NCBI RefSeq assembly: GCF_030384885.1
Contig: NZ_CP128615.1
Reading direction: 5' to 3' (one strand)
Source of the DNA: Escherichia coli
Lineage (GTDB): Bacteria > Pseudomonadota > Gammaproteobacteria > Enterobacterales > Enterobacteriaceae
DNA length: 64,000 nt
Made by a program: the position numbers and the translations under genes. The notes below the pieces were generated by a model that did not search any database, had not been told where the DNA came from, and saw nothing but the letters and a program-made list of their open reading frames with translations. Positions 5,801 through 53,439 of the stretch are shown here, one piece after another. Numbering within the stretch: the first letter of the stretch is position 1; the number at the start of each line of letters is the position of its first letter.

Positions 5801-7783
5801 AAAGGAGAACGTATAAATATTGGTAATGGTGCATATTCAAAAAATTCTATAAGTATAACCGGAAATTCCATATTTGATTTCGGATCATCTCAGGAATCAA
5901 CCATTGGTGAAGGTGATTACAGCCAGTCGTTAGTTACCATTAATGATGCATCAGTTTATGGTGATGGTTCATTAACTCTGGCAAAAGGTAATAATAGTTT
6001 TGCAGTACTGAATCTTCAGGATAATGCAGTGACTAATGCCAACAACATTTCACTTGCTACAGGACTGGGCAGTAAAGCAATCGTGAATGTTAGTAATATG
6101 AATTCCGGACAGTTCAATCCTGTATCTATGGGAGCAGGAGATGGTTATGCGGAAGTAAATTTTGATGGTGTTAATGGCTATACACTCTCAACTAATTTCA
6201 TTTGTATGGATTCCGGTTCATGTGCAGACACTGTCATAAATGTAAACAGAGGGACAGTTTCTCTGTCAGGAACAAATGACTGGAAAGGGCAGATAAATGT
6301 TTATGACGGAACCCGACTGGATGCAAGGGGGAATGATGCCGTTGATGGTATACTGAATGTCAGCAAAGAAGCACAGGTTGACTTTAACGGATACTCGCAG
6401 CATATGACAGGGATAGATAATAAAGGGATGATTTATCTTTCTGACGGAAGTGCTTCATCAGATGTGTATCTGGATAAAGATTATGTTGCACATGATGGTT
6501 CCGGTGTACAGTTCGGGATTTTCGGGCAGAAAGAGGCGGATGTGATGCATGTTAAAGGTGATACATCCGGGAGTTCAGGTATAGTTGTCACGACAAACAG
6601 TAAAAATAAAATAAAGAAAGGTGGCGACATTCTTCTTGTTGAGGTTAATGGGGACTCATCAGGTAGTTTTTACCTTAACTCACTGATTAAGAATGGTAAG
6701 GAGTATAAGGTGACAGGTGACTACATTGATGTGGGGGCCTGGGAGTATGCGCTGAACAAGAAAAGGAAGAATTGGTATCTGAGTGTGGATATGCGTCCTG
6801 AGCCAGGTGCGTTTATAAACAATAGTAAAAGTATGTTAGATATGTTTGCTCTACAACGGTATGACATACCCGGGCAACATCGTTATCCTACATTGTTTGA
6901 AAACTTATATAACAATGGGATGTGGATTCAATTTAACAACAACTCAGGTAGTAATAGTGAGGTGTATGATAATCTCAAGACCAGTTATAGTTTAAATACT
7001 ATGATGATTGGAGGGGATATATACAATTGGACTGATGGATATAACTATTCACATATCGGGATAATGGGCGGGATGGGGAGTGCCGCTAACAAAACAACGT
7101 CAACAAATAATAAAAGAGCTACCGGAAATGTAGACGGTTATACTCTTGGGCTTTATCATGTATTTCAACAAAATATCAGTGATGGACTAAATGAGTCAGA
7201 ACGTCAGGGGCTGTGGACTTATTCGTCTATACAATACATGGATTATGATAACAGCGTCAGTTCAACAAATAATTTCAAGGCTAATTATGGTGTAAATGGT
7301 TTTCGCCTGACAGGTGAGGTTGGTTATCTAAAAAATATAGGTGGCATACAACCAAGCGATTTCTACGTTGAACCTAAGTTATACCTTTCGCATACTGAGT
7401 TGTCTGGAGGTGTAGTTGAAGATCTTCAGGGAGGGAAAATAACTTATCCGAATTCGCTAACTATTATTGAACCAGGAGTATTTTTCTCTTATCGAAAAAC
7501 TCATGAATCGACTTCCAATGATGAAGCAATGTTTAAAGATTATATAAAACAATCTGTAGTCGATGCATGGTTTGGTGGGGGGTATTCATTTAAAACTGGA
7601 AATTATAGTCGTACTAACTTTGATTCAGATATGGTTGAATATAATACATCGGATAATTTCGCTCTTAAGAGTGGTGTTGAATTTGAATTTTTGAAGGATG
7701 CACGTCTTTTATTAACATCCTCATACTCAATAAATAATGATCGCAACTTGAGTTTTATTCTTGGTGGCAATTATTATTTTTAA
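2828..7783 (+). CDS. Autotransporter (type Va) adhesin-like protein with repetitive beta-helical passenger and C-terminal beta-barrel
   Basis: 1651-aa ORF; N-terminal signal-like segment ending LAYAES (start may be the Met at 2846); Gly/Asn/Ser/Thr-rich repeats; C-terminus ends in aromatic ...NYYF typical of autotransporter barrels; AT-rich. Confidence 0.8.
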   Translation: MFLLSIMKELKKFNRYVMCFFLGARLAYAESIDGSSTINNRDISGSLNIGVWKDASVNINGTVNIKQYFSVATCNGQSSTCPTGGLNASANINNSAKVGASVTIVGDSSKGILDIDGGSSLYTQQLWVSGNDNDKTSNFSDDSNGSLKINNGSNVFVVLSQDNTPFKDNPIKWDQKIISQGNNITDGTVSSGDLVLGKTGNGIIDIDNKSRLDVKNDVVVSTGVDGIPNEKPSLININNESDFLIHGNMKGGISAAGKLQLNMDSSSNLRVDNNITVGIGSGSDISVSAANGSSISATGDFTVATGDNSNANLNLDASNLTVNGVSTIGSGNGSTTKFDIQNSSVVTSGSGMTLAKGKGTQANINISSSKLNTGSLSVGEGEAAKVTMTGNGATVSTGNSFTVAKGNNASATLDYTDSEIDIGSGYIGEGDAAETQLELNNSKLTASDKVFIGQGDTTQTNLTLNNHSSVNVSGEMSVARGSSASVDVTVTNAMLSADSLSLGGGEAAKVTMTGNGATVNSGNSFTVAKGNNASATLDYTDSEIDIGSGYIGEGDAAETQLELNNSKLTASDKVFIGQGDTTQTNLTLNNHSSVNVSGEMSVARGSSASVDVTVTNAMLSADSLSLGGGEAAKVTMTGNGATVNSGNSFTVAKGNNASATLNYTDSKIDIGGGYIGEGDAAETQLELNNSELTASGKVFIGQGNTTQTNLTLNNHSSVNVSGEMSVAQGNSASVDVTVTNAVLSADSLSLGGGEAAKVTMTGNGATISSGNTFTVAKGNNASAALDYSDSKINIGNGYIGVGEKSHTLLKLDNSIFHAAGNIDIGKGSSTIATVSVGAGSNMSIKGNASIGVGDQAKAKFSVKDSVLNIGSSLVLGQGNSTEAEMSVEHSQLYSGSLLLGTANNAVVSMDANDAGISVVGDYIVAKGDGSEATLIYKNSDINLGNGILGAGSGVKTDLSLDNSKFVASDGIIIGEGDNAITNLSISDHSVFKGERINIGNGAYSKNSISITGNSIFDFGSSQESTIGEGDYSQSLVTINDASVYGDGSLTLAKGNNSFAVLNLQDNAVTNANNISLATGLGSKAIVNVSNMNSGQFNPVSMGAGDGYAEVNFDGVNGYTLSTNFICMDSGSCADTVINVNRGTVSLSGTNDWKGQINVYDGTRLDARGNDAVDGILNVSKEAQVDFNGYSQHMTGIDNKGMIYLSDGSASSDVYLDKDYVAHDGSGVQFGIFGQKEADVMHVKGDTSGSSGIVVTTNSKNKIKKGGDILLVEVNGDSSGSFYLNSLIKNGKEYKVTGDYIDVGAWEYALNKKRKNWYLSVDMRPEPGAFINNSKSMLDMFALQRYDIPGQHRYPTLFENLYNNGMWIQFNNNSGSNSEVYDNLKTSYSLNTMMIGGDIYNWTDGYNYSHIGIMGGMGSAANKTTSTNNKRATGNVDGYTLGLYHVFQQNISDGLNESERQGLWTYSSIQYMDYDNSVSSTNNFKANYGVNGFRLTGEVGYLKNIGGIQPSDFYVEPKLYLSHTELSGGVVEDLQGGKITYPNSLTIIEPGVFFSYRKTHESTSNDEAMFKDYIKQSVVDAWFGGGYSFKTGNYSRTNFDSDMVEYNTSDNFALKSGVEFEFLKDARLLLTSSYSINNDRNLSFILGGNYYF
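3952..5230. repeat. Tandem array of about 3.4 near-identical 372-bp (124-codon) coding repeats inside the autotransporter passenger
   Basis: Protein repeat LSVGEGEAAKVTMTGNGATV...NAMLSADS recurs; DNA copies at about 4256-4627 and 4628-4999 differ by only a few bases; antisense ORFs recur at 372-nt spacing. Confidence 0.9.
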
Positions 7784-22529: not shown

Positions 22530-22963
22530 GTACCGTTTATCACCGTCCGGCTGACCCTTCAGGCGATGACAGTTACGTGCGACCGTTGTTTGCCGATCGT
22601 TGCCAGGCCGGTTTTCCTTCGCCTGCCACTGATTATGCTGAGCAGGAACTGGATCTGAACAGCTATTGCATCAGCAGACCTGCAGCCACCTTCTTTCTGC
22701 GCGCCAGCGGTGAATCGATGAACCAGGCTGGCGTGCAGAATGGTGATCTGCTGGTAGTGGACAGGGCCGAGAAACCACAACACGGGGACATCGTTATCGC
22801 TGAGATCGACGGTGAGTTCACCGTCAAACGACTGCTGTTGCGCCCACGCCCGGCACTGGAGCCGGTTTCAGACAGCCCGGAATTTCGCACACTGTATCCG
22901 GAAAACATCTGTATTTTTGGTGTTGTCACTCACGTGATACACAGGACGCGGGAGTTACGCTGA
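22526..22963 (+). CDS. impA: ImpA/UmuD-like protein (LexA-type S24 peptidase)
   Basis: 145-aa ORF with Ser/Lys self-cleavage region (GESMNQAG...VKRL); 4-bp overlaps with both neighbours. Confidence 0.85.
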   Translation: MSTVYHRPADPSGDDSYVRPLFADRCQAGFPSPATDYAEQELDLNSYCISRPAATFFLRASGESMNQAGVQNGDLLVVDRAEKPQHGDIVIAEIDGEFTVKRLLLRPRPALEPVSDSPEFRTLYPENICIFGVVTHVIHRTRELR

Positions 22964-24233
22964 TGTTTGCACTGGCTGATATCAACAGTTTCTACGCCTC
23001 ATGTGAAAAAGTTTTCCGCCCGGACCTTCGCAACGAACCGGTCATCGTACTCAGCAATAACGATGGCTGTGTGATCGCGCGCAGCCGGAGGCAAAAGCCC
23101 TTGGCATCAGAATGGGGCAGCCCTGGTTTCAGGTGAGACAGATGCGCCTGGAGAAGAAAATACATGTATTTTCCAGCAATTATGCGCTGTACCACAGCAT
23201 GAGCCAACGGGTCATGGCTGTTCTGGAGTCGCTTTCTCCCGCAGTTGAGCCCTACTCAATTGATGAAATGTTCATTGATTTGCGGGGGATAAATCATTGC
23301 ATCTCTCCGGAGGTTTTTGGTCATCAGCTCAGGGAACAGGTAAAGAGCTGGACAGGACTCACCATGGGGGTGGGCATTGCGCCTACAAAAACGCTGGCTA
23401 AAAGTGCACAGTGGGCAACAAAGCAATGGCCACAGTTTTCCGGTGTGGTCGCGCTGGAGGCAGAAAACCGTAATCGGATCTTGAAGCTACTGGGGCTGCA
23501 GCCAGTTGGTGAGGTCTGGGGAGTAGGACGCAGACTGACGGAAAAGCTGAATGCGCTGGGTATTAACACAGCACTGCAGCTGGCGCAGGCTAACACGGCA
23601 TTCATCCGGAAAAACTTCAGCATCATTCTTGAGCGTACGGTACGCGAACTCAACGGCGAGTCCTGCATATCCCTGGAAGAAGCACCACCGGCAAAACAGC
23701 AGATTGTCTGTAGTCGCAGTTTTGGTGAACGAATCACAGACAAAGATGCCATGCACCAGGCTGTTGTTCAGTATGCAGAGCGGGCCGCAGAGAAACTACG
23801 TGGGGAGCGTCAGTATTGCCGGCAGGTGACGACATTTGTACGGACATCCCCCTTTGCAGTAAAAGAACCCTGTTACAGCAATGCCGCTGTGGAAAAGCTT
23901 CCATTACCCACACAGGACAGCCGGGACATTATTGCCGCAGCATGCAGAGCGTTAAACCATGTCTGGCGTGAAGGGTACCGCTATATGAAGGCAGGAGTCA
24001 TGCTGGCTGATTTCACACCATCGGGTATAGCGCAGCCGGGATTATTTGATGAGATCCAGCCCCGTAAAAACAGCGAAAAGTTAATGAAAACACTCGATGA
24101 ACTGAACCAGTCTGGAAAAGGGAAAGTGTGGTTTGCGGGGCGAGGAACCGCCCCTGAATGGCAAATGAAACGGGAAATGCTCTCGCCTTCGTATACAACA
24201 CAATGGACTGAGATCCCCATTGCTTCATTCTGA
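22963..24233 (+). pseudogene. impB: ImpB/UmuC-like Y-family polymerase, interrupted by a 1-nt frameshift near 23086
   Basis: N-terminal 57 codons (MFALADINSFYASCEKVFRPDL...NDGCVIARS) in one frame stop at 23136; the rest (MGQPWFQ...) continues in another frame from 23112. Confidence 0.8.
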
Positions 24234-24237
24234 TATA

Positions 24238-24666
24238 TCAGAATAATTTTTGCATTTTAAGGCGCACATCATTCATTGCCTCCTGCACCGAATCAGTAGC
24301 AGAAGGAGGCATTTTTTCAGCAGATTGCAAAGCACCGAGTTCAGTCAACACAGCTCTGATATCGGCCTGAGAAGGCTTCCATCCTGTCGTCTGACTGAGT
24401 AAGGTTACAACCTGATCTGCTGAAAACTCCTCGCTCAAAATGGCAGTCAGCAATACAGGCAGGCGAGGATCAAGTTGGTGTAACGCCATTCCAGAAATAA
24501 ATGCATTCCGGAACAGCTCACCACGCTCAGAACGCGGAACGGACTCTATCGCTTCCAAAGCTTGAAAGTCTGCAGCTTTTTCCGGATGCAGATAAAGTGT
24601 GAATTTTTTCCTTTTCCGTTCATCGTCCACAATATTACTCCTCTTTGAAAGCCGCGATAGCTTCAA
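24238..24666 (-). CDS. ParR/StbB-like partition adaptor (type II system)
   Basis: Small ORF directly downstream of the ParM-like gene; assignment by position and size. Confidence 0.5.
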   Translation of the reverse strand: MKLSRLSKRSNIVDDERKRKKFTLYLHPEKAADFQALEAIESVPRSERGELFRNAFISGMALHQLDPRLPVLLTAILSEEFSADQVVTLLSQTTGWKPSQADIRAVLTELGALQSAEKMPPSATDSVQEAMNDVRLKMQKLF

Positions 24667-25606
24667 CCAGTGCTGTCTGTGGCGACTCCATCATCACTAC
24701 TTTTTGCCCAAGATGGTGCCATGCCGTTTTTATCGAATCATAGATCAACGGGGCCCCACCACCGACAACATAAACACGATTCACATGATGAAAATCACCG
24801 AGCTCATTGACTACTTGCTCCCCCAGACTGGCAATAGCCCCCTCAATGGTATTAAGGACCAGATCAGTTTTTGTTTCGTCATTTATAACCTGCCGAACAA
24901 AGTCCGGGTCATTACGACGTTTAATCAATTCATCTGCAACGAGGAAACTGGTATCACTGGATGCCATGCGCAATGCACTCATTGCAGCTTTCGTAACTGA
25001 AGACACACCAATGCCAGAATTACCATGAATGGCACTTACAGAGTCAAATTGACCAACGATAACACCAACATCAAGCGTAGTGCCGCCAATATCAACTACC
25101 AGCGATTTTTCGAACTGACCAACTTTATCCATGACCAGACGAGAAAACACAGCTGGCAATGATTCAGGCATCACATCAACGTGTTCAATGGTGAAAACAT
25201 CGCCTTTATTAAGACGAATCGGCCTCATTAAATTCTCAATTTTACGCTGAATGTTGAGTTCATTTTTTTGACACTCTTTCGTGTAGAACTCACTGATAGG
25301 CAAAGTCACAGTCAATGATACAGGCTGAGGCGCTAATCCACTATTCAGTAAAGCGTGATGCACAGCTAACAGGTTAACATCCGTATATTGATACTCAATA
25401 TGAGTCGTAAGAATAGATTGGTTGCTAACTTCATCATACGTGTATTTTTTACCATCCAGTTCATAGTTAAATGTCTGGCGAATCCCTAACCCGTCAACCT
25501 TCCATCCATGACGAAATGAGTTTTGCGACAACGACTTACAGATTTTCCCATTGTCATTCCATGCCAACTTGATTGTTGTTGAACCATCATCGCAGTATAC
25601 GTTCAT
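24635..25606 (-). CDS. ParM/StbA-like actin-type partition ATPase
   Basis: 323-aa ORF with actin-fold phosphate motifs (CDDGSTTIKLAW, VVDIGGTTLDVGV, YVVGGGAPL). Confidence 0.8.
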   Translation of the reverse strand: MNVYCDDGSTTIKLAWNDNGKICKSLSQNSFRHGWKVDGLGIRQTFNYELDGKKYTYDEVSNQSILTTHIEYQYTDVNLLAVHHALLNSGLAPQPVSLTVTLPISEFYTKECQKNELNIQRKIENLMRPIRLNKGDVFTIEHVDVMPESLPAVFSRLVMDKVGQFEKSLVVDIGGTTLDVGVIVGQFDSVSAIHGNSGIGVSSVTKAAMSALRMASSDTSFLVADELIKRRNDPDFVRQVINDETKTDLVLNTIEGAIASLGEQVVNELGDFHHVNRVYVVGGGAPLIYDSIKTAWHHLGQKVVMMESPQTALVEAIAAFKEE

Positions 25607-25609
25607 CTA

Positions 25610-25830
25610 TAGCCCCTTAAATACTCAATCTGAGTAAATCACTGTTTCTGGTTGCAAGGTAATACTCAATTTGAGCACTATCATAGTTATGAAATCACAA
25701 AACACAAGTAATATTTATTACATCATATGACATACTTCATATTTCATACTTCATAAATATGAATGCATGTTGACACATCAGGTTACAGTGTCAAAATATC
25801 ATCATACTTCACACATCACATTTATGAGGT
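25610..25830. promoter_or_regulatory. Divergent intergenic region with direct repeats; candidate centromere/promoter for both partition operons
   Basis: Repeated CATACTTCAT / TACTCAATTTGAG motifs between divergently transcribed partition genes. Confidence 0.4.
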
Positions 25831-25834
25831 TGCA

Positions 25835-26479
25835 ATGATTACTGTAGTTGGTGGGAACAAAGGTGGTTCAGGGAAAACTACCATTGCATCAAACCTGGCT
25901 ATTGCTCTCGCAAATAAAGGAAGGGAAGTCTGCCTGTTAAACGGAGATCTACAACGAACAGCCGCAAAACATCATGCGGAACGAGAAGCTGCAGGACTGT
26001 TACCAGCAATAACCCTTGTTGAGAAATTTGATAACCTGACACAAACACTACAGGCTCTGAATGAAAAGTTCGATGATGTAATAGTGGATGTCGCAGGAAG
26101 AAACTCAAAGGAATTCATAACGAGTGGAGTTGTCGCACATCAAATAATTGCGCCACTACAGTGTTCTCAACCAGATCTGGATACTCTTACAGAACTAGAA
26201 CAACAGATAGACGCAATGCGTAACCTTAACCCGGAACTTAAGGTTTATTGTTTACAAAGTATGGCAACAACCAATCCGGTTTTGAGGGGAAATGAGAGAA
26301 AAGAATTCCTTGAATATCTTGAAGAATTCCCAACAATTCAAGTCCTGGATTCAGTTATTTGTTTCAGAAAAGTCTATCGCGATTGCATGAGCAACGGCAC
26401 CGGTGTAGTAGAAACGAACAATACAGCAGCCAGAGCAGAAATTGAACATTTAATGAATGAGGTATTTGGCCCATGGTGA
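25835..26479 (+). CDS. parA: ParA-family partition ATPase (small ParF-like, type Ib)
   Basis: Deviant Walker A VVGGNKGGSGKTT at the N-terminus; start taken at the ATG at 25835 after a GAGG RBS. Confidence 0.8.
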   Translation: MITVVGGNKGGSGKTTIASNLAIALANKGREVCLLNGDLQRTAAKHHAEREAAGLLPAITLVEKFDNLTQTLQALNEKFDDVIVDVAGRNSKEFITSGVVAHQIIAPLQCSQPDLDTLTELEQQIDAMRNLNPELKVYCLQSMATTNPVLRGNERKEFLEYLEEFPTIQVLDSVICFRKVYRDCMSNGTGVVETNNTAARAEIEHLMNEVFGPW

Positions 26480-26748
26480 AGAAACCCAGCCAGCAAGCAT
26501 TAAACAGAGCTGCAGTTACGGTAGAACAAGCAGAGGCTCTGGCTCAGCGCCTTGCGGATAAACCATACGGCGCGCCGGAAAAACTCGAACCAGAAAAACA
26601 ATGTCGGACGACAATCTCTCTTGGTGAAAGCATGCTTGTCACAATAGAAGATCTGGCATTGAGGAATAAACGCAATGGTAAAGATCCAAAAAATGTAAGT
26701 GCCATCGTCAGAGTAGCCCTTGAGCAATACTTAAAAACACTAACGTAA
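26473..26748 (+). CDS. Small ParG-like DNA-binding partner of ParA (likely RHH)
   Basis: 91-aa ORF overlapping the parA stop; C-terminal AIVRVALEQYLK. Confidence 0.5.
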   Translation: MVKKPSQQALNRAAVTVEQAEALAQRLADKPYGAPEKLEPEKQCRTTISLGESMLVTIEDLALRNKRNGKDPKNVSAIVRVALEQYLKTLT

Positions 26749-26885
26749 TAATCAAGAAGTTATTACTTATGAAATCACACTTGTGAATTCACACTGTTTA
26801 AGCACCCTTGCATACAAGAGATCACATATTGCAGTGGTCTCTTCTTTTATAGAATAAATCACAATTCATAATTATGATTTGTGAC

Positions 26886-27677
26886 TTATGCGTGTCTGTT
26901 TTTCAGCATTGTGACAGCATCGGACTCAGGCATCGAAAACTGCACCCGGTGCCGTGCAGCCACATCCAGCGCAAACACCTTCGTGTACACCTCTGTCGAA
27001 CTAATCGACTTGTGCCCCATCAGGCTCTGCAGCACCTTCAGCGGAATACCAGCATACAGCATATGCATCGCGTAGGAATGGCGGAAAGTATGTGGGGTAA
27101 CCGGAACAGAGAACGTCACGCCGTCGGCCGCAGCGGCCTCTACAGCTTCATTCAGCCAGGTGCGAACTGTGCGGTCGGTGATTCCCCAGATGCGCGCCTT
27201 CTCCATTCTTCCGGTTCGTTTGTTTCTGCGCTCCAGTGGGATTTTCAGCGTGGCCACCATCATCTGCAGTTGGCTGACGTATTGTGTATCGGACAGGGGA
27301 ACCAGGCGATGCACCTGACTGCCAGCAGGGACACGGCCTGCCGTTCTGGTCGCTTTTTCAGTCCGTTGTTTGAGCGTGGCCAGCTGTACGAACGGATATG
27401 GCGGCGCCAGAGAAAAATCTCCCCGCGTCAGCGCCAGCGCTTCGTTTATACGTGCGCCCGTGTTCCACAGGGTGGCCAGCAACATTTTGCGGTGCAGATC
27501 CGGTACATAGTGGAGCAGGGCGCTGATCTCCGGCGCCAACAGATATTTTGGTAATTCGTCCTGCACAAGTGCCATCTGACGTAGTGCCAGCGCAGCCGGG
27601 TAATCAATGGCAACAGGTAATGTTGCCGGAGGCGTTAAAAAAGAACCTGGCAGGGAAAGCAATTGTGGGCCACTCAT
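26886..27677 (-). CDS. Tyrosine site-specific recombinase (candidate multimer resolvase)
   Basis: 263-aa ORF with HTFRHSYAMH...LMGH...Y catalytic region; paralog of int at 1263-2003. Confidence 0.8.
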   Translation of the reverse strand: MSGPQLLSLPGSFLTPPATLPVAIDYPAALALRQMALVQDELPKYLLAPEISALLHYVPDLHRKMLLATLWNTGARINEALALTRGDFSLAPPYPFVQLATLKQRTEKATRTAGRVPAGSQVHRLVPLSDTQYVSQLQMMVATLKIPLERRNKRTGRMEKARIWGITDRTVRTWLNEAVEAAAADGVTFSVPVTPHTFRHSYAMHMLYAGIPLKVLQSLMGHKSISSTEVYTKVFALDVAARHRVQFSMPESDAVTMLKNRHA

Positions 27678-28105
27678 GATGTCCCCTTTATGAAATCCTC
27701 AATCTCTTGCTCGGTCTTTTTAGACTTCTTTACCATTTCGTACTCCTTTTGGAGTGTTTTACCTCTGGCTTTCAACAATACCAACCTCGTTGGCGATAGT
27801 GTATCGGAAAGGCCGTGCAGAGGGAGGCCACATAACATTCTCAGTTCTCGTGATAACCGCAGTGCTTTTACTCCCAACATAGCTGCGTTTTTATGCAAAC
27901 TATATTCACCCGCTCCACCATAAGGAGTATCTTCAACAAACACATTATCTACACACACGACAGCTTCGTAGCTGAGAACAGAGAGTTCGCTGAGCCTATA
28001 CATCAGGCCAGAAGGAAGGGAGCGCCAGTTACCAGATACCGGGGAATAATCGATTTCCGGTAATAAGAACTCAGCTTCTCCTCTGCCATCCTGATCGTGC
28101 TCCAC
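27674..28105 (-). pseudogene. Gene of unknown function, N-terminus truncated by IS26
   Basis: ORF reads across the IS26 left inverted repeat at 28106; 4-bp overlap with the recombinase start. Confidence 0.5.
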
Positions 28106-28927
28106 AGGGCACTGTTGCAAATAGTCGGTGGTGATAAACTTATCATCCCCTTTTACTGATGGAGCTGCACATGAACCCATTCAAAGGCCGGTATTTTCAG
28201 CGTGACATCATTCTGTGGGCCGTACGCTGGTACTGCAAATACGGCATCAGTTACCGTGAGCTGCAGGAGATGCTGGCTGAACGCGGAGTGAATGTCGATC
28301 ACTCCACGATTTACCGCTGGGTTCAGCGTTATGCGCCTGAAATGGAAAAACGGCTGCGCTGGTACTGGCGTAACCCTTCCGATCTTTGCCCGTGGCACAT
28401 GGATGAAACCTACGTGAAGGTCAATGGCCGCTGGGCGTATCTGTACCGGGCCGTCGACAGCCGGGGCCGCACTGTCGATTTTTATCTCTCCTCCCGTCGT
28501 AACAGCAAAGCTGCATACCGGTTTCTGGGTAAAATCCTCAACAACGTGAAGAAGTGGCAGATCCCGCGATTCATCAACACGGATAAAGCGCCCGCCTATG
28601 GTCGCGCGCTTGCTCTGCTCAAACGCGAAGGCCGGTGCCCGTCTGACGTTGAACACCGACAGATTAAGTACCGGAACAACGTGATTGAATGCGATCATGG
28701 CAAACTGAAACGGATAATCGACGCCACGCTGGGATTTAAATCCATGAAGACGGCTTACGCCACCATCAAAGGTATTGAGGTGATGCGTGCACTACGCAAA
28801 GGCCAGGCCTCAGCATTTTATTATGGTGATCCCCTGGGCGAAATGCGCCTGGTAAGCAGAGTTTTTGAAATGTAAGGCCTTTGAATAAGACAAAAGGCTG
28901 CCTCATCGCTAACTTTGCAACAGTGCC
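28106..28927 (+). mobile_element. IS26, no flanking target-site duplication
   Basis: Terminal repeats GGCACTGTTGCAAA (28106) and TTTGCAACAGTGCC (ends about 28927); flanks CTCCACAG versus CCACCCAT. Confidence 0.95.
28171..28875 (+). CDS. tnpA: IS26 transposase Tnp26
   Basis: MNPFKGRYFQRDIILWAVRWYCKYGISYRELQEM... recognised. Confidence 0.95.
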   Translation: MNPFKGRYFQRDIILWAVRWYCKYGISYRELQEMLAERGVNVDHSTIYRWVQRYAPEMEKRLRWYWRNPSDLCPWHMDETYVKVNGRWAYLYRAVDSRGRTVDFYLSSRRNSKAAYRFLGKILNNVKKWQIPRFINTDKAPAYGRALALLKREGRCPSDVEHRQIKYRNNVIECDHGKLKRIIDATLGFKSMKTAYATIKGIEVMRALRKGQASAFYYGDPLGEMRLVSRVFEM

Positions 28928-38325: not shown

Positions 38326-40401
38326 TCAATTAACCCCAAGCGCCTTAAACACGGCATCGACGGGGTCTGCATAAAAGCTGATCTGGAATTTTGAGAACAA
38401 CTCAGCAGGAACCGTTGGAATATCTGAGGCTGAGGCCATTGGGAGCAAAATACGCTTTGCGCCACTGTCCATAGCTAACTGAAGACTGCCTGCAAGATCT
38501 TGAACAGGATTGACGACACCACCTAAAGTCATCTCACCCAAAACAACCATCTGCTCTTGAATCGGTCGGTTCATCAGAATTGAACAGAACGCAATTAATG
38601 CAGCGAGCGATGACTTTGTACTTGGCCCCGTATTGTGGAGCTCAACAACATGGAGGTGATACTCATGATCAGAAAACTTCGCCGACGCACTGATTCTATT
38701 CAGGTTACCTTTGAAATAATCAAAGCCAACACGCACAGCTTCTTTCGCTGCGGTATTCGAACCAAGGCCAGACACTGAGTGTTTACCAGAACCAGCCATC
38801 ATCTGGGTTTCATAGCGATATAACCCAAGCTGCCCAGTGCTTCCCTGAGTAACCAAGTGCACGACACCAGCGCGAGGTAAGCCCTCAGGAATTAGCTTGC
38901 TGCCACCTTGTTCCGGTACATTGATGAAGAATTCTTCTAATGAATCGTTATCGATGTAGCTAAAGTGCACATCAAAAAATTCCATTCCGCCAAGCTTTTT
39001 CAATTGCTCTTTGACTCTACGTCTAGTTTCCAGCGCATAGGTCAGGCAGGCTCTTACATCATCTTTTGTGTACTGTGCGTCGGGGTGTAGTAGCTTTAAC
39101 AAGCCCGAAACAGTTCTGCGTACAGCAATTACATCACGCTGATTAAGGTTATTACCGAGTTTGAAGAACTTATCGATAGCATCCGCAAAACTTCTTTTGC
39201 GCATTTCACGCATGTATTCAGCAAGATAGTCTGTGATTAATCCGTAACTATTGGTGAAAAACTCAGGACGCATCTTCGGTATTTCCCATCCAGGAATATA
39301 GGAATGGAAACGGTCAAAAAAAGCAGTGTCAATCATGGCTTCAGGAAAAGGTGCCAACAGATGACTGGTCTTCACCAGTGTCTCAACGCTTTGATTGATG
39401 TTACCGACGAATACCATGGAAGCCTTCGCTTCGATTGAATCACGACCACGGGCAAAAGACCCTGACGCCATATAATCTTTCATTATTTGGACGCCGTCTT
39501 TGTCTTTAAAGTTAATACCCGCTACTTCATCAAAGGCGACAACATCCCACATTCCGACCAACCCAACTTGGCGCGAGCTCATGTTATAGAACAAGTTCGC
39601 CACAGTTGTTTGTCCGCCCGAGACAAGCAATGAGTTTGGTGAGCACTCCTTGTAGACATGGCTTTTACCTGTCCCTCTTGGTCCGAGCTCACAAACGTTG
39701 TAGTTGTTTTCAACGAATGGGATCATACGAGTGATAAGATGCCATTTCACCCGATGCTCTAAGTTGGTTGGCTCCATACCCACGGAACGAAGCAACACAT
39801 CCATCCACTGATCGGTACTAAAATGTCTTCTGGTTGAAAACACCTCATCCATGTTCATGGACGGCATTTGTATCGGTTTTAAACTCATAATGGAGAAAGG
39901 TGATGTCTTCTGACCTTCCTCAAAGAAATACTGGACGGTAATAATGCACCAGATGCCGCCAGTTAATAATTTTTCGTTGTCTTGTACTATTTTGGTCGGT
40001 ACAAGGGCATCCTTGATACCCAGGTTCGACAACGCAGCTTCATAGACGTCTTTTTTCTGGTTGAGCTTAACGCTTACTTTGTCGATGATTTTAAACGTGC
40101 CGCGTTCACGGATCAGTGACTTCACTTTCTCCGCTTCATCTGGTCGGACATAGTTCTCAGCCAAGATTTTTTTTACATTATCAAGGCCTTGCATTACAAC
40201 TTCGTCGTCATCGGACGCACAATACATGCCTAGTAAATACTCAAGCACATAGACAGGGACGTTAGCGCCTTCTTTCAATTGCTTTGTCAGATCTTTTCGA
40301 ACGACACGGCCTTTAAAATATTGGTTGAGCAATGCGTCTAAATCGGCGCTTTGCATCTGATTTTTTTCGTCTTTATGATCTTGTGAAAAATCAGTTGTCA
40401 T
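38326..40401 (-). CDS. brxL: BrxL (BREX Lon-like protease/ATPase)
   Basis: 691-aa ORF, last gene of the BREX operon; P-loop GPRGTGKSH and C-terminal Lon-protease-like domain. Confidence 0.85.
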   Translation of the reverse strand: MTTDFSQDHKDEKNQMQSADLDALLNQYFKGRVVRKDLTKQLKEGANVPVYVLEYLLGMYCASDDDEVVMQGLDNVKKILAENYVRPDEAEKVKSLIRERGTFKIIDKVSVKLNQKKDVYEAALSNLGIKDALVPTKIVQDNEKLLTGGIWCIITVQYFFEEGQKTSPFSIMSLKPIQMPSMNMDEVFSTRRHFSTDQWMDVLLRSVGMEPTNLEHRVKWHLITRMIPFVENNYNVCELGPRGTGKSHVYKECSPNSLLVSGGQTTVANLFYNMSSRQVGLVGMWDVVAFDEVAGINFKDKDGVQIMKDYMASGSFARGRDSIEAKASMVFVGNINQSVETLVKTSHLLAPFPEAMIDTAFFDRFHSYIPGWEIPKMRPEFFTNSYGLITDYLAEYMREMRKRSFADAIDKFFKLGNNLNQRDVIAVRRTVSGLLKLLHPDAQYTKDDVRACLTYALETRRRVKEQLKKLGGMEFFDVHFSYIDNDSLEEFFINVPEQGGSKLIPEGLPRAGVVHLVTQGSTGQLGLYRYETQMMAGSGKHSVSGLGSNTAAKEAVRVGFDYFKGNLNRISASAKFSDHEYHLHVVELHNTGPSTKSSLAALIAFCSILMNRPIQEQMVVLGEMTLGGVVNPVQDLAGSLQLAMDSGAKRILLPMASASDIPTVPAELFSKFQISFYADPVDAVFKALGVN

Positions 40402-40417
40402 GTTTCACCTCAGCGCC

Positions 40418-43090
40418 TTAGAAAAAATCATCTTGGAATGCCAAATCAATGGTTACCGCGTATTGGCTATAACGGGTTCTCATTTCCGCATTCTCAAGAA
40501 CTAATGTGTATTGAGCGTTTCTATCGAACTGGGAGCCAATAAGCTTTAACCTAGCTTCGCGAGTACGTTCATCCATCACTTTACTCACGCTATCAAAGTT
40601 AATCGTTTCACGACTGGAGACTTCATTACCTTGTGCATCGACGATATAGACATCCAACAACCGTGCGACGAAACGCTCGCCTACAGGGTCTGTCTGAATA
40701 AATCTGACCTTGTCGATATTGTTTACTAATTTGATGGGCTGAGTGGCTGCTACAACACCTACCGGTTGTTTCTCATGTTTTGCTGCTTGTTCTTTTTGTA
40801 GCTCTCGCACATGTAGTACCGGTACGCAGACTTCCTGTAGCATCGCTCCGCCATGCACAAACTTAGCACCACCAACGAAGTGGAAGCGTTGAGCCGCTTT
40901 TGGAAGCAGGAACTCGGTATCACTTGAGCCATGAGCCGTATCGTTAATTGAGCCTTTCCAACAGGCTTCATCTGAAGGCAAGTTATTACCAACGATATAA
41001 CGTTTCTTGGCTTCTATCGCTCCAGCAGGTTTGGTTTTCAACGAGGTTTTGTCAGCCGCTACAAGTGCTTTTTGTTGGAAGAGGAAGCCATGGTCAGCAG
41101 TGATCACAACTCGGCTGCCGTTTAGACGGTTGATGACCCGCCCAACGAGGTCTTTTAGCTCTTCAATGGCACTACGACAGGCTTCAAACGTTTTCTCTTC
41201 AGTTGCTGCCTTATCACCAATCGCATCAATGGTATCGTGATAGATATAAACGACTTCTACGTCTCGAACCTTGTCACGCCCCTCCTGGTTACTCCAGCTC
41301 ATCAGTTCCTTAGAACTCACTGCCATACCACCTACTTTTTGTAGGATGGCGTTGCGGTTGTCTAGACCCTGTGAAGAAATACCATCCACATAAACAGCCG
41401 TGCCTTGCTCTGGCTGGTAACTGAGCGCCTTATGAGGCAATAATGCCGCCATCCCAAGTTGGGTATAACTCGGCAAAACGCCCAACTGCGTAGACACCTC
41501 AGCCTTAAATCGCTTCTCGTTGTTAATGATAGCGCCAAGCTCATTCGCAATTTCAAAACGCAGGGCATCAGAGATGATCACAAACACTCGTTTTGTCTGT
41601 TTCAGACTCAGTCGTGTGCGAACTTCTTTTTCATAGAAGTCATACTGGTGCGGTACGCCAGAAATCTGCCACTTTTCAAGTAATTTTTCATTGGCCAAGT
41701 GACGATCCCATGCAAGGCCAAGCTCATACAAGTACCAGTTGGTATAAATGCTTTCGACTTCGTCGTCGAGCTGACGCAGTATGTCTGCACCTTTACTCAA
41801 TACAGAGTGCACATGCTCATTGAACAAACGGTAAGCCTGGTCAAAACGATAAATGTCTGTGGTATAGGCGTCGTACATTGCTTTCGCGTTATCAAAGTGG
41901 AACCCATCCACATAGCGATTTCGCAAGTGCATTAACTCTTCAGCGTTGCGGATAGCTTCATAAATTGCGAAGTATTCTTTGCGTGACAATGTCCAGTGGC
42001 TAGAAAGACGTCTTGATAAGACCGTATCAAACTGAACCCGGTCTAGCGCTTTACTGCTATCGAGCAAATCACGAACTAAACCACGGATTATGGCCTGTTC
42101 CACAGCTTCGAACGTTTCGCATTCGATAAGCTCAACCGGATGGTACTGCCCAGCACGAGTCGAAATTTCCAACTGTTGGCTAAGCACCTTAGAGATGCTT
42201 TCGTAGTAAGCGGCGAAAGAGCGGCTGTCGCGCCAGCTCACCATAAACGCCAAGGCTGTCGCCCGGCCTGATGCGCTTTTTAGAACATTGTTAAGCAACC
42301 AATCGCGTTCAACACCTTCAATTTGGCTCCAGAATTCAGTACAGAATAATTTCAACACGAAGTCTGAGAAGGTTGGCTCTTCAACTGTATAGCCAAAACC
42401 CTCACTCAGATATGCCCAGAGTGAGGTCTCAAGATCAAACTTTCCTAGCTGGCTCCATAAAGGTTGACCAAGGCTTTCATCTTCGATATAAGCCGCATAT
42501 TCGCGTAGTAACCCAAGCAGAATGTCCGACAAAGACGCAGAATCAGCTTTTACAACCACTGCCATCATCTTTCTGTCTAACGACAGTTCGTCTTCGTTCT
42601 CAGTCACCCACTTTTTTAAACCGGCTATGCGCTGTTTATTGGCAAAAAAGCTCTGGCGCTTACGAATGTGCGTGCGAAGCGCCATTTTCGGAATACCCAG
42701 CTCATTAAGCAGCATTGAGCTGTGATCAGCAAAAAACTGCTCGCTATACAAACGCACGTCTAGCAACCAATCGCGGTCAGGCTCTGGCTCAGCGCTTGGA
42801 AAATAGATAAGGAATTTAGCTTCACGCTCATCTACTTCAATGCGTTTTTTCACTGCCAATACAGACTCATTGCCCATATTGAGGATGGTCAAATCATTTG
42901 GAAGCACCCGTGCAGTTTTATCCGCCGATTTATCGTCTGTTTCTTTTGCAAGCCCTTCTTTTGCAATAGAGAGGGCGTTAGCTAAATGCTCAAGCTCTTC
43001 AGTAAAGCTTTGCTCTGGGTCGTACCAAAACACAATGCGGCTTTGTTCAAATTTGGCAGCAACGCCTTGTGCCAGTTCACTAATCTGCAT
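40418..43090 (-). CDS. pglZ: PglZ (alkaline-phosphatase-superfamily BREX protein)
   Basis: 890-aa ORF with ITADHGF motif. Confidence 0.85.
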   Translation of the reverse strand: MQISELAQGVAAKFEQSRIVFWYDPEQSFTEELEHLANALSIAKEGLAKETDDKSADKTARVLPNDLTILNMGNESVLAVKKRIEVDEREAKFLIYFPSAEPEPDRDWLLDVRLYSEQFFADHSSMLLNELGIPKMALRTHIRKRQSFFANKQRIAGLKKWVTENEDELSLDRKMMAVVVKADSASLSDILLGLLREYAAYIEDESLGQPLWSQLGKFDLETSLWAYLSEGFGYTVEEPTFSDFVLKLFCTEFWSQIEGVERDWLLNNVLKSASGRATALAFMVSWRDSRSFAAYYESISKVLSQQLEISTRAGQYHPVELIECETFEAVEQAIIRGLVRDLLDSSKALDRVQFDTVLSRRLSSHWTLSRKEYFAIYEAIRNAEELMHLRNRYVDGFHFDNAKAMYDAYTTDIYRFDQAYRLFNEHVHSVLSKGADILRQLDDEVESIYTNWYLYELGLAWDRHLANEKLLEKWQISGVPHQYDFYEKEVRTRLSLKQTKRVFVIISDALRFEIANELGAIINNEKRFKAEVSTQLGVLPSYTQLGMAALLPHKALSYQPEQGTAVYVDGISSQGLDNRNAILQKVGGMAVSSKELMSWSNQEGRDKVRDVEVVYIYHDTIDAIGDKAATEEKTFEACRSAIEELKDLVGRVINRLNGSRVVITADHGFLFQQKALVAADKTSLKTKPAGAIEAKKRYIVGNNLPSDEACWKGSINDTAHGSSDTEFLLPKAAQRFHFVGGAKFVHGGAMLQEVCVPVLHVRELQKEQAAKHEKQPVGVVAATQPIKLVNNIDKVRFIQTDPVGERFVARLLDVYIVDAQGNEVSSRETINFDSVSKVMDERTREARLKLIGSQFDRNAQYTLVLENAEMRTRYSQYAVTIDLAFQDDFF

Positions 43091-46000
43091 TAGTTAACCT
43101 CCGGGGCCGAACCGGTAATGGCCTTAACATCAGCCAACAGATCACCAAACTTGCCGTAATTCACTTTCACGCCATCATCCAAATCCAGTGAAATACGCAT
43201 ATCAGCGTAGTGTTTTAGCTTGTCATCAAACTCGCGTAGTTCAACCTGTTTCTTGATTAAGGCATCCAACTCTTTCTTGAAGCGGTTCGCTTCACTGGTC
43301 GAGTCTGCCGTTTCAATCTGCTTCTCAAGCTGCTCTGCATAAGCATCGTATTTGCCGAGTAACGGGGTGACATACTCGGTACGCATACGCGAAAGCGTGC
43401 CCTCGTTGTAACGGTGCAGGTAAACCAGGCACTCAAAAGCCTTCTGTTTGCCTGAGCTAAACAACCAATAAATAGGACGTTTTTTGTATGTCTTCAGGTG
43501 GTCTTTGTAGAATTGAGTCGATAAATAGCGGCGGATCGTCTCAAGAGCTGATTCTGATTTTTTGGGCTTTATGGCATTTAAGCACAGAGACTCTGCAACA
43601 AAATCGAGATTTTCTTGTAAGTGTTCTTCACCCCAAACAACTTGGACAAACTCGCGGAAACGATTGGTTGCGTCGTCCTTGAACCATTCTTGGTCGGTTA
43701 GGGGAATGATGCCATTTTCGTCGGCAGCAAAAGATTGATAAGCACCTTCGGCAACGAGTTTATCAAACCCATAATTACAAGCATGAGCGTAGACTAAGCC
43801 TTCACGATCAAGAGAGTAACGCCCCATCATGCAACCAATGGAGTAACTAATGAGTTCACAGGTTGTATCAGATTTTAACTTACTTAAATCAGTAGAATTT
43901 TCATATCGAAAAGCAGGGTTAGCAAATAATGATAGTGTTGAAATATCTATTGAAACCGGCACCGAAATTCCAAAATCATTGCATATTAAAGAATTAACTT
44001 CACTTTCCAAATTGGCTTGTTCATTAACTAGATTTAACTTCACTTCATTTAGAACCTGATAAGATTCAGCAATTTTGGCACGTTTTATTTTACACAGAGG
44101 CGAACATTCAAAGTTCCATGACGTTTCGTACATATCCCAATCAACCTTTGCGTTGGAAATTAAATCGCTCACCTTTTCAAACAATGCTTCTTTGTCAGCC
44201 TTATTGAAAATTGCCGGCAATGAGGCTATTTGACTCGTTTCATAGTTAAGCGTTGGCGAAATGATTTTTAACTGTTCCAGCACTACAGATGAGTTTAACT
44301 GAGCCAATAAGGCATATTCTTCAATTCGAGAATTAAGAAATACTGATGCACCTGCAACGTCAAATATCGCTCCTTCAGGCTGCCATCTGAACGATGGAAT
44401 TCCACTCGAAATTTTTGACCAAGTTACTGAGCTACGAAAATAAAATGCACCATTTTTCACAGTTCTAGTAGGAGACCCATACAAACTTTTAGCGTATGCA
44501 AATACCTCTTCACCTGCATTTTCCCAATTAATTACGTATTCCTGATTGCCATACCATTTTCTATATGAACCGCCTTTATTATATGGAAACCATTTGAATC
44601 CTGAGGATTCAGCTTCATCTTTAGAACTAGAGTCATACATTGAGGTGTTTACTGGAACTTCATGCCATAGCCTTAAGAATCTATTATTATCACTTGTTTG
44701 ACACCCAACTCTAGTTTTAGCAACTGACGATATTGGCGCGTCCATAAATGTATTTAATATTTCCTTGGCAACCCAATAAGCAATCGGACTCCCAGGAATC
44801 TTTTTGAAATCATCCTGAGCTGTCGCTGCAAATTCATTCTCTCTATTGAGCAATGCTTTTTGCTTTTCTTCTTCATTGCCATCTATCAGCCTATAAAAGG
44901 TAGGTTGATAATGATTGATGTGCTTATTTTGAATAATCCAGGCAGTAGTCTGTACAACCTCGCCACTAATCTGACTAAAAGCGCGTGCACCGAGGTGAGC
45001 CATAGTAATAAATGTATGGTCTTCCAATAAATTGTTTCTTAGTTGCTCATAACTCGACAAGAACATCCACGATTGCATATTGATTTGAGCATTAAATCCA
45101 TATTGAGAAAGCAATTTAAATGCTCGCTCCATAAAAATGGCAAACAAGTCTGATTTACTATTTGGGTATTGTTTCTTAGCAAACTCTTTCAAATCTGCAT
45201 TCATTCCTTTTGCTCCCATATAGGGAGGATTAGCAATCACAGCATCGTAACGAATAGATAAAACCAAAGCCTGGTGAACAAACTCAATCAATTGCTTCGC
45301 TGCCAGCTTCTGCATTGAGTCGCCTGACTCTTGTAGCTCTACTAGCGTGCTCAGGAGCTCTTTTAGCTGTTCATGGTCATCGCTTGGTACATCAATCAAT
45401 GAACCAAAGGTCTTGGCTTGAGTAAATCTTGCCAACGTTCGCTTCAGCAGTTGGTAGCGGTTGTCTGCATTGAACGAGCTTAAATCTTGCTCTTCGTCAG
45501 AGAACAGTCCTTGTGATGTGCCGCTTTGCCAACTTCCCGATAGGTTGAGTGCTTTCCATAAGGTCGGCAGATCAATATGGTTACTTTCCTGCAATGACAG
45601 TACATTGAGTCGCACGTTACGGGTAAAAATACGCTTGTCGTCATCTCTCGCCATCATCATCAGGGCAAAGCCAGATAGCTGTGCTGCACGATCATCTATG
45701 TCCAAGCCGAAGAGGTTGTTCTCCAGGATCATCTTTGGAATGTCACGAGAGCGGAAACCACGTTCTTCGTAGATGGCTTTTAGTACGTTGTAAGCTTCAA
45801 TCAGTATGTGGCCCGAGCCACAAGCGGGATCGAGTACTTTGATGGTTTCAGGTTCAATCGATTCTGGCGTAATAGCCTTTAGCTGTTGGTTAACTTCGTC
45901 AGATTGCTGCGCAGGCTCAATGTAGTATTCCATCTGGCTTTTAATGGCAGAGTCTGGGTAGGTTTGCAGCCATTGACGACCGACTGAGTTTTGTACCAGG

Positions 46001-46758: not shown

Positions 46759-46773
46759 ATGATCTTGCGCCTC

Positions 46774-48537: not shown

Positions 48538-48553
48538 AGTTATCCGTTGCCTC

Positions 48554-52231: not shown

Positions 52232-52249
52232 TCGGGAGGCTCCCTGCTC

Positions 52250-52843
52250 TTAATTTTTTTTACCGTCTTCAGGCACAAGCTTGAAGGCGCGATAGTAGTT
52301 TTTAGATTCGATCATGCCGAAAGGATGCAAATCCCTTCCGCTATATTCACCCGGATAGAAAAGCACTAATGGCGTGCTACCCATAACGTCTTGCAGAGCA
52401 CTAAGTAACTCATGTCCTCGGATAAGAGGCCACGCACTGCCTAAGCCTGACAGCAACACAAACTCAAGTTCTGATGGCTTATATTTGTCCGCGATATACC
52501 TTGCCACTTTCTCTTGGCTCAGAGGCCCGGCTAGTGTTTTTCGAAGGCCATCAACACCGACTTGCAATTCACGCTGGCAAGCTCGGTCGAAAAGGCCTCG
52601 CTCCTCAAGCATATCTATCAAGACTTCAAAAATATTGAGATGGACAAAGCGGTAACCACGCTTGTTGAGTTTTTCGTCAACGTGCTTAATGTGCTCTCGT
52701 ACAAGCAGTTCATACTTGGCTGGATAGTCAAATACCCAAAATCCAATTTCATTGCCCAAGCCATCGTTTTTCAAAAACTTAGGGCTTTCAATTCGTTCCA
52801 GTATCAGATCAAGCCTGGTCTGAAGAGCCTTCATATTGTGCAC
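52250..52843 (-). CDS. brxB: BrxB (DUF1788)
   Basis: 197-aa ORF between brxA and brxC; assignment by size and synteny. Confidence 0.7.
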   Translation of the reverse strand: MHNMKALQTRLDLILERIESPKFLKNDGLGNEIGFWVFDYPAKYELLVREHIKHVDEKLNKRGYRFVHLNIFEVLIDMLEERGLFDRACQRELQVGVDGLRKTLAGPLSQEKVARYIADKYKPSELEFVLLSGLGSAWPLIRGHELLSALQDVMGSTPLVLFYPGEYSGRDLHPFGMIESKNYYRAFKLVPEDGKKN

Positions 52844-53430
52844 TCCATTACCTCAATCAAATCTTCCCGGCCCAGACGAACTAACCAGTCTTTAACTTCT
52901 GGCATTAGGTAAACAGGTTGTATTTTCTTTGTCCTGCTATCACTCAGGTAGCCACTATCAACCAGTGCCTTAATTGCGTTGTTACCCATTTTTTTGACAG
53001 TTGAGTCAGAAAAACCGCCAAGCTCAGCATATGCCCGCACTCTCGTGTCATAAAACTCAGACCATGCATCAGCGGTTAAAGAGGGTTTATAGGTGCGACG
53101 AGCTTCGGCTAAGGTAAGTCGCATAAAATAAGCGACAACCGGAGAATGAATGAGTAATGACATCATCAGCATTTGGACATAGGCACGTTCACTCGCGGCT
53201 AAAAGATCAGTCATAAACTCATCACCCAGGCCTTCAATACGCCAACGGATTGTTCTGGCATAACGAATAGCCGTCTGACCGGATTTTTTCTGAAGAACAT
53301 TTTGCTCAACGATCAGCGACTTCCACTCATCTTCTGGAAGTTTTTTCAATAGCGATTCTGCGATTATTCTAGATTCAGTTATCAATAAACTGCCTCCGAT
53401 AAGATCGCCTAAATATTCTTTTATATTCAT
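52831..53430 (-). CDS. brxA: BrxA (DUF1819)
   Basis: 199-aa ORF, first structural BREX gene; 13-bp overlap with brxB. Confidence 0.7.
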   Translation of the reverse strand: MNIKEYLGDLIGGSLLITESRIIAESLLKKLPEDEWKSLIVEQNVLQKKSGQTAIRYARTIRWRIEGLGDEFMTDLLAASERAYVQMLMMSLLIHSPVVAYFMRLTLAEARRTYKPSLTADAWSEFYDTRVRAYAELGGFSDSTVKKMGNNAIKALVDSGYLSDSRTKKIQPVYLMPEVKDWLVRLGREDLIEVMECTI

Positions 53431-53439
53431 AAATTCATC

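Follow-up and report, generated by a model that had tools for sequence, protein, structure and literature searches.

Divergent partition operons on an Escherichia coli plasmid and their near-identity to the double par locus of pB171

The window analysed here is a 64-kb stretch of Escherichia coli plasmid DNA (64,000 nucleotides of contig NZ_CP128615.1). It contains two adjacent, divergent partition operons: parR (stbB; 24238-24630) and parM (stbA; 24635-25606) on the minus strand; and parA (25835-26479) and parB (26473-26748) on the plus strand. The initial annotation had placed the four genes in this way, and the open reading frame map, the Pfam domains, and the RefSeq annotation of an identical plasmid all agree.

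The minus-strand operon, par1, has the composition of a type II (ParMRC) system: a gene for an actin-fold ATPase, then a gene for a small RHH adaptor, with repeats 5' of the operon. ParM (323 aa) contains the Pfam StbA_N domain (1.6e-64) and the ParM C-terminal domain (4.3e-44), and in a phmmer search it matches the R1 ParM structures at 2.8e-76. ParR, the RHH adaptor, predicted to bind the centromere and to repress par1, matches Plasmid_stab_B (5.9e-30). Its product is 130 aa long, read from a GTG, as in both PDB chain 2JD3 and RefSeq; a 142-aa open reading frame beginning at a TTG is an upstream extension of this form. The 2JD3 chain is ParR of plasmid pB171, and 125 of its 130 residues (96%) are identical here, the five substitutions falling mostly in the C-terminal third. 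As in the parMRC (stbAB) system of R1 and R100, an actin-like ParM is paired with an RHH ParR, and repeats flank the promoter upstream of parM. However, R1 parMRC has ten 11-bp repeats where this locus has two (perhaps three) 15-bp palindromic boxes; it has no adjoining type I system; and its ParR differs from the one encoded here, which belongs to a longer type that has a helical C-terminal domain.

The plus-strand operon, par2, encodes a small type Ib Walker ATPase and an RHH partner. ParA (214 aa) starts at the annotated ATG at 25835, which is preceded by GAGG 6 nt upstream, and this start was kept over a 238-aa open reading frame that extends upstream to 25763. The deviant Walker A motif, KGGSGKT, runs from K9 through K14 to T15. 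A motif that starts this early leaves no space for an N-terminal domain, and ParA thus has the features of type Ib: the approximately 200-aa size class, the deviant Walker A motif, and no N-terminal HTH domain. Structures of ParF and other ParA proteins align to residues 8-210. ParB (91 aa), the putative centromere-binding protein of par2, is assigned to the RHH class by a Pfam RHH_1 match to residues 45-88 that exceeds its cut-off by a small margin (21.8 versus 20.5 bits); a structure search found no solved structure for any of its sequence relatives.

RefSeq names the ATPase "division plane positioning ATPase MipZ" and ParB either "hypothetical" or "CopG family regulator", and MipZ is indeed the best Pfam match of ParA, ahead of AAA_31, CbiA, and ParA. 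Taken at face value, these names would make the pair a positioning ATPase of the MipZ kind and its CopG-type regulator rather than a partition system. We consider this next to impossible. The MipZ match spans residues 2-52, and because it covers the P-loop only we rejected MipZ as a description of ParA; the full-length structural relatives are the ParF/ParA partition ATPases (4dzz, 5u1g); and the proteins are nearly identical to those of pB171 par2, for which a partition function is established experimentally.

As a partition system, par2 resembles both TP228 parFGH and the pSM19035 delta/omega system, which are likewise type Ib systems with RHH centromere-binding proteins. The shared features are a small Walker ATPase that lacks an N-terminal domain, with ParF (4dzz) matching ParA over the full length; an RHH partner whose N-terminal tail is flexible; and a centromere of short, degenerate repeat arrays that doubles as operator. 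Sequence identity to these systems is low, however, and the repeat sequence is different. Moreover, in the pB171 type of organization, unlike those of TP228 and pSM19035, two centromere arrays flank the operon, and one of them is held in common with a type II system.

The spacer between parM and parA (25607-25834) is the predicted centromere and promoter region common to par1 and par2, for which the pB171 literature supplies the name parC1. The initial annotation described it as a 220-bp region full of short direct repeats; the repeats are there, and above chance, but the length is 228 bp. Mapping them, as that annotation had proposed, yields separate ParR-type and ParB-type sets, with two ParR boxes and 11 hexamers. 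The ParR boxes are 15-bp palindromes, TACTCA-N3-TGAGTA. The pattern TACTCANNNTGAG has three sites only in the 64 kb (0.03 matches expected), and two of them are in the spacer: a proximal box, TACTCAATCTGAGTA (25622-25636), about 27 nt before the start codon (ATG) of parM; and a distal box, TACTCAATTTGAGCA (25663-25677), 41 bp from the first, at -69. A ParR box at -27 to -31 is retained in all seven diverged parMR loci. For pB171, the literature describes two 10-bp repeats ahead of parM as the binding sites of ParR. A simple consensus scan of the minus strand of parC1 returned no sigma-70-like site for par1, and inspection by hand gave weak candidates only, around the TTGCAA hexamer (25652-25657) that sits between the two ParR boxes.

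The ParB-type hexamers, WTCAYA, occupy positions 25680-25820 in clusters at 25680-25699, 25722-25763, and 25801-25820, many of them 7 bp apart or in inverted pairs spaced by 6 bp. With a consensus derived from the very regions tested for enrichment (parC1 and parC2), there are 11 copies in 159 bp, compared with 3.3 +/- 1.5 in shuffled sequence (none of 2000 shuffles reaches 11); the average across the window is 2.2 per kb. The ParB repeats of pB171 reportedly number 17 and 18, and the strict WTCAYA count here is lower. Flanked and followed by the hexamer clusters is the putative parAB promoter, the candidate P2 (25770-25797, plus strand; TTGACA, 16 nt, TG-CAAAAT), to which a consensus scan assigns 10 of 12 consensus matches plus an extended -10 TG. 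In a relative of 72% identity (L002), the TTGAC and -10 elements of this candidate are kept, and both repeat sets lie at the same places.

A second repeat region, parC2 (26749-26910), follows parB. It was missed by the initial annotation, beyond whose coordinates it lies. Its eight hexamers fall into two clusters (26768-26793 and 26858-26878), apart from a single copy at 26821; with the same region-derived consensus, this is 8 in 137 bp, compared with 1.2 +/- 1.0 in shuffles (none of 2000 reaches 8). The primers used for pB171 parC2, FS35 and FS36, map to 26731-26769 (one mismatch) and 26880-26910 (two mismatches) and so bracket 26731-26910, which supports its assignment as the second par2 centromere. 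Within parC2 is a terminator-like hairpin (26816-26843), and on the right parC2 extends into the 3' end of the integrase gene. At the start of parC2 there is also a single match to WATCARNNNNTTR (26750-26762), a lead to an IHF site. It is a lead only, because the six matches in the window equal the number expected by chance (6.0).

The remaining ParR-type box, TACTCAATATGAGTC (25392-25406), lies inside parM, at codons 68-72 (THIEY), 230 bp downstream of the proximal box, and is likewise perfect. It is present in nine of ten compared loci with the same parM clade. Across seven diverged loci, only one other stretch of parM is more conserved at the DNA level than the region around the box, where third-position identity is 0.75 versus 0.42 gene-wide, an unusual degree of conservation at synonymous sites. 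This candidate additional ParR site suggests, tentatively and with the odds against it, that the par1 centromere/operator of this family extends beyond the published pair of repeats ahead of parM to include a third, intragenic box. The box may be unreported; a literature search for an earlier account of an intragenic ParR site gave irrelevant matches only, which carries no weight in either direction. If the suggestion is correct, ParR occupying this box could draw the 5' part of parM into a loop or wrap, and in that way enlarge the partition complex or tune the expression of par1. (A "downstream activating element" is reportedly present in R1 parM and would be a model for such tuning.)

Together, these features almost certainly identify the 24238-26910 block as an intact allelic version of the double par locus of pB171, reportedly the subject of Ebersbach & Gerdes 2001 and Ringgaard et al. 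2007. The locus is therefore already known, being near-identical to pB171 par1 (parMR) and par2 (parAB). The architecture, proteins, one crystal structure, cis sites, and regulatory cross-talk of that locus were elucidated between 2001 and 2009, and par2 has since been a standard model of ParA-driven plasmid positioning. The genes, their order, and their orientation are the same in both plasmids, as are the shared spacer of about 200 bp, the two ParR repeats, the ParB hexamer arrays, and the second array after parB. Orthology of the proteins was established directly for ParR, through 2JD3, and for ParM, ParA, and ParB through a plasmid (L007) that matches both pB171 primers exactly and whose ParR agrees with 2JD3 at 129 of 130 residues. 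Against L007, the window proteins are identical at 322/323 (ParM), 213/214 (ParA), 90/91 (ParB), and 124/130 (ParR) positions, and the nucleotide identity is about 98.7%. Accordingly, the one-residue differences from pB171 in ParM, ParA, and ParB are as measured through L007, and the five in ParR as measured against 2JD3.

Besides those five ParR substitutions, the allele differs from pB171 by single-base changes in parC2, some of which switch the hexamer type (TATGAA to TGTGAC). The hosts differ as well: an IncFIB/FIC resistance and defence plasmid here; and, for pB171, an EPEC virulence plasmid.

Publications on pB171 describe the same layout, with par1 (parMR) and par2 (parAB) divergent around the shared parC1, cross-regulated, and followed after parB by the second centromere, parC2. 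They place an array of ParB sites on either side of the par2 operon and give the upstream one a regulatory role as well; they have ParB repressing both promoters, including that of neighbouring par1; and they report that either half of the locus stabilizes a test plasmid and that par2 with parC1 and parC2 stabilizes and positions a mini-R1 plasmid. The initial annotation was therefore right that a type II and a type Ib system diverge around one region with (predicted) cis sites of both, and this is the published pB171 layout.

From the experiments on pB171 we infer the binding, repression, and segregation activities of the present allele. Two independent segregation machines would be transcribed divergently from parC1. 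In par1, ParR dimers would occupy the palindromic boxes beside parM and repress the promoter; the ParR-DNA complex would capture and stabilize the ends of ParM-ATP filaments, whose growth would drive sister plasmids apart. In par2, ParB would bind the hexamer arrays of about 6-bp units in parC1 and parC2, and the resulting complexes would stimulate nucleoid-bound ParA-ATP; plasmids would follow or redistribute ParA and so become evenly spaced over the nucleoid. Presumably ParB also autoregulates parAB, because its predicted sites flank and overlap the promoter region.

This picture supposes that both systems function. One might instead be a decaying passenger, with only the other active on this plasmid. 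The frameshift in the neighbouring umuC shows that decay does happen here; against L007, ParR varies more than the other three proteins; and studies of other double-par plasmids frequently find one dominant system. Nevertheless, the four open reading frames are full length, with complete domain coverage, and both sets of cis repeats are intact. Each exact protein sequence occurs on 368 to 1,000 or more contigs, in large clusters, and in the 72%-identity relative the proteins are undisrupted at 59-86% identity. Loss of one system is thus very improbable, and the decayed second system that the initial annotation had named as counter-evidence is not what is found.

The two functional types could also have been brought together by recent cointegration of two backbones, in which case the spacer would be a junction rather than a co-evolved regulatory region. 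The initial annotation considered the arrangement unusual and raised a fusion of two replicon backbones. The arrangement is in fact common: 80% or more of the locus is present on at least 996 PLSDB plasmids and in 734 of 5,426 complete E. coli genomes (about one in seven). A published survey counts 971 PLSDB plasmids that combine a type I system having an RHH ParB with a type II system. Some observations do favour fusion: the host plasmid family is multi-replicon (IncFIB/IncFIC) and mosaic (IS26, other IS elements, BREX), the two systems differ in evolutionary type, and the final 74 bp of parC2 accompany the integrase gene in plasmids that lack par genes. However, an Enterobacter plasmid of another replicon and MOB (relaxase) type keeps the block, umuDC-parR-parM<->parA-parB-integrase, flanks included, at 72% nucleotide identity, and the double locus is also present on IncK2/Z plasmids. 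Both repeat sets are interleaved within the single 228-bp spacer and conserved together. Moreover, in other lineages the relatives of this ParMR clade lie beside different small ParA systems: a divergent parRM<->ATPase plus RHH pair with other repeats occurs on a Yersinia plasmid; and on IncI-gamma/K1 and IncFII(K) plasmids the same parMR clade stands in tandem with yet another small ParA. Fusion as a recent event is therefore rejected as very improbable. The synteny at 72% identity, the joint conservation of repeats, and the varied partners of ParMR indicate that any joining was ancient and that the unit is inherited as a module.

Walker-type and actin-type partition systems also occur together on R27 (IncHI1) and on pINV/pUTI89. 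As far as is known, each system there is a module of its own, separate or in tandem, with its own cis sites, and the two do not diverge around a shared centromere/promoter.

The value of the locus as a discovery is small, the system having been explained already on pB171. At the gene level, this plasmid nonetheless has both segregation machines intact, and the RefSeq labels (MipZ for ParA and hypothetical for ParB) hide the locus from annotation-based surveys. The conserved box within parM would add to this classic system a feature that can be tested cheaply.

The ORF listing and the sequence place two gene pairs, pointing away from one another, at this locus. On the minus strand is par1 (type II): parM (24635-25606; 323 aa; Pfam StbA_N, 1.6e-64, and ParM C-terminal domain, 4.3e-44) and, after a gap of 4 nt, parR (24238-24630; Plasmid_stab_B, 5.9e-30). 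On the plus strand is par2 (type Ib): parA (25835-26479), whose 214-aa product matches Pfam P-loop families of the ParA/MinD/MipZ type, and, overlapping it by 7 nt, parB (26473-26748), whose 91-aa product matches RHH_1 (21.8 bits; cut-off 20.5). ORFs and Pfam together bear out the initial annotation, which had described a ParM-like ATPase and partner diverging from a small ParA and 91-aa partner. Two starts were corrected: ParR begins at a GTG and has 130 aa, versus 142 aa in the longest ORF, and ParA begins at the ATG at 25835, with 214 aa versus 238. Both match the RefSeq annotation of an identical plasmid, and ParR also matches the crystallised protein. With these starts the spacer, parC1, is 228 bp long (25607-25834); the repeats ascribed to it are present, and its length was first put at 220 bp. 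In identical plasmids, PGAP gives ParA of the pB171 type the name "division plane positioning ATPase MipZ" and calls ParB a "hypothetical protein" (25835-26748), so this par2 system will escape surveys that rely on annotation.

The double par arrangement is already known from the E. coli plasmid pB171. In 2007, Ringgaard and colleagues reportedly described parC1, a centrally placed cis region (about 200 bp) common to both pB171 loci; unrelated direct repeats within it, bound by ParR and by ParB; repression of the par1 promoter by ParB as well; and a contribution of IHF to par2 function. EMSA of each small protein and stability assays of each half are also said to have been done already for pB171. 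The sole PDB entry matching ParR is 2JD3, "StbB protein" (1.9e-77; 125 of 130 residues identical), which a published paper identifies as ParR of pB171. The supplement of a pB171 par2 study gives parC2 primers for a pB171-derived template; their plasmid-specific parts match the window at 26731-26769 (one mismatch) and 26880-26910 (two mismatches), and at no other site. Plasmid pECO-fce matches both primers without mismatch, and 2JD3 at 129 of 130 residues, and therefore serves as a stand-in for the pB171 allele. Identities between it and the window are 322/323 for ParM, 213/214 for ParA, 90/91 for ParB, and 124/130 for ParR. The pB171 type Ib operon is described as having direct-repeat arrays both upstream and downstream, the upstream array being also regulatory, and constructs with parC1, parA, parB, and parC2 stabilised and positioned mini-R1.

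The repeats of parC1 and of parC2, the region downstream of parB, form two unrelated sets: ParR-type boxes and WTCAYA hexamers. Next to parM lie two ParR-type boxes, TACTCAATCTGAGTA (25622-25636) and TACTCAATTTGAGCA (25663-25677), with 41 bp between them. Their core, TACTCA-N3-TGAGTA, is palindromic, the symmetry expected of a site for a dimeric RHH protein, and TACTCANNNTGAG has only three sites in 64 kb (0.03 expected). Eleven hexamers lie in three clusters in parC1 (25680-25820), often spaced by 7 bp (25736, 25743, 25750; 25801, 25808, 25815) or as inverted pairs spaced by 6 bp; eight more lie 3' of parB (26768-26878). Dinucleotide shuffling gives expected numbers of 3.3 +/- 1.5 for the first region and 1.2 +/- 1.0 for the second; in 2000 shuffles the observed counts were never reached. 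The test is partly circular because the consensus was taken from the tested regions. Of all 150-bp bins in the window, the four richest in hexamers also fall in these two regions. Support independent of the consensus comes from a 13-mer, TTATGAAATCACA, common to parC1 and parC2, and from the IncK2/Z plasmid pNFI1, in which exactly one 7-bp repeat unit (AAATCAC; window 26853-26859) is deleted from distal parC2. Further differences of the pNFI1 allele swap one hexamer variant for another (TGTGAC to TATGAA).

A candidate parAB promoter, a good sigma-70 match (TTGACA at 25770; TG-CAAAAT, which ends at 25797), sits amid the hexamer clusters. Three hexamers lie directly downstream of it, consistent with ParB autorepression. 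The sigma-70 scan passed no par1 promoter. An IHF consensus match, AATCAAGAAGTTA (26750-26762), follows the parB stop directly and is shared by the pB171-like allele; across the window, this motif occurs at chance level.

The third perfect ParR-type box, TACTCAATATGAGTC, lies inside parM (25392-25406), separated by 230 bp from the proximal box of parC1, and is one of only three pattern matches in 64 kb. It occupies codons 68-72 (coding strand, ACT CAT ATT GAG TAT; T68-Y72), and is kept in nine of ten compared loci having this parM clade. In a codon alignment of seven loci, only 11 of 154 degenerate codons conserved for their amino acid are invariant, and two of these encode Ile and Glu in the box. 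Third-position identity here is 0.75 (parM mean, 0.42), and is exceeded only by the 5'-end DDGST codons. This synonymous-site conservation suggests selection on the DNA itself. A search that covered literature other than the primary pB171 papers found no earlier report of a ParR-type box within parM.

Work on pB171 is the source of the partition and repression activities proposed here. By homology, par1 would be a pushing machine, in which ParM-ATP filaments growing between sister plasmids are capped by ParR bound to its boxes. Likewise, par2 would be a positioning machine: ParB at parC1 and parC2 would stimulate nucleoid-bound ParA-ATP, and the resulting ParA gradients or oscillation would space plasmids evenly. 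ParR and ParB would each also repress promoters inside parC1; the interleaving of their sites would explain the published cross-repression.

Within the experimentally defined parC2 fragment, the distal 74 bp (26812-26885), a hairpin and four hexamers in near-palindromic arrangement, recur at 100% identity in IncFIB/FIC plasmids of the ColBM type (L003, 4001-4074; L006); there they again lie beside the integrase gene, and colicin M genes take the place of the par locus. This segment may be either a parC2 (centromere) remnant or a piece of the integrase module. In the stretch 27674-28875, an ORF of 168 aa downstream of the integrase is abutted by an IS26 transposase gene (28159-28875). In related plasmids the counterpart of this ORF is a hypothetical protein of 229 aa, which makes truncation by IS26 probable. 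Directly downstream of parR, umuC (polymerase V subunit, Y family; 22963-24233) is frameshifted: tblastn with an intact homologue places residues 1-70 and residues 43-423 in different frames. The DinI-like and umuD genes upstream of it appear intact. At the start of the window is a RepB-family (IncFIB) replication initiator gene (1-978); next comes another site-specific integrase (1263-2003), and after it a large autotransporter gene (2828-7783). The same plasmid encodes a complete type 1 BREX system (38326-54366; brxL, pglZ, pglX, a DUF262 gene, brxC, brxB/brxA-like genes, and a WYL regulator), adjoined by an IS110 family transposase gene.

The sequence comparisons show the parts of the locus and their conservation. 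The initial annotation had called the arrangement unusual, a view that its distribution contradicts: 1,009 PLSDB plasmids match the locus (993 at 95% identity or more; 996 with at least 80% of it covered), mainly conjugative plasmids of Escherichia, Salmonella, and Klebsiella; among complete E. coli genomes, 734 of 5,426 have it. A 2026 survey counted 971 PLSDB plasmids combining type I RHH-ParB with type II systems.

The further suggestion, a recent fusion of two replicon backbones, conflicts with the synteny of Enterobacter chengduensis pLAP2. This plasmid, of another replicon cluster and of relaxase type MOBP, keeps the order umuDC-parR-parM<->parA-parB-integrase at 72% nucleotide identity; its proteins are 80% (ParM), 86% (ParA), 85% (ParB), and 59% (ParR) identical. 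Its spacer retains the hexamer clusters and both ParR boxes, with a block ahead of parA nearly invariant relative to the window, CATACTTCACACATCA(C/T)ATTTATGAGG; a short hexamer cluster and a terminator lie 3' of parB. IncK2/Z plasmids also carry the double module. More distant members of the ParMR clade (ParR, 42-59% identical) all have two or three TACTCA-N3-TGAGTA boxes upstream of parM, one of them at -27 to -31 in every case. Their adjoining ATPases share 27-30% identity with the window ParA. In Yersinia ruckeri pYR4, ParMR lies beside a divergent ATPase and RHH pair with differing repeats (AATATT type); in IncI-gamma/K1 and IncFII(K)-type plasmids, ParA and a 124-133-aa partner lie upstream on the same strand, as a tandem parA-orf-parM-parR. 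Together, the module on pLAP2, the IncK2/Z carriers, and the differing ParA neighbours of distant relatives show that the association between this ParMR lineage and small ParA systems of the Walker type is old and recurrent, and no accident of this plasmid's assembly.
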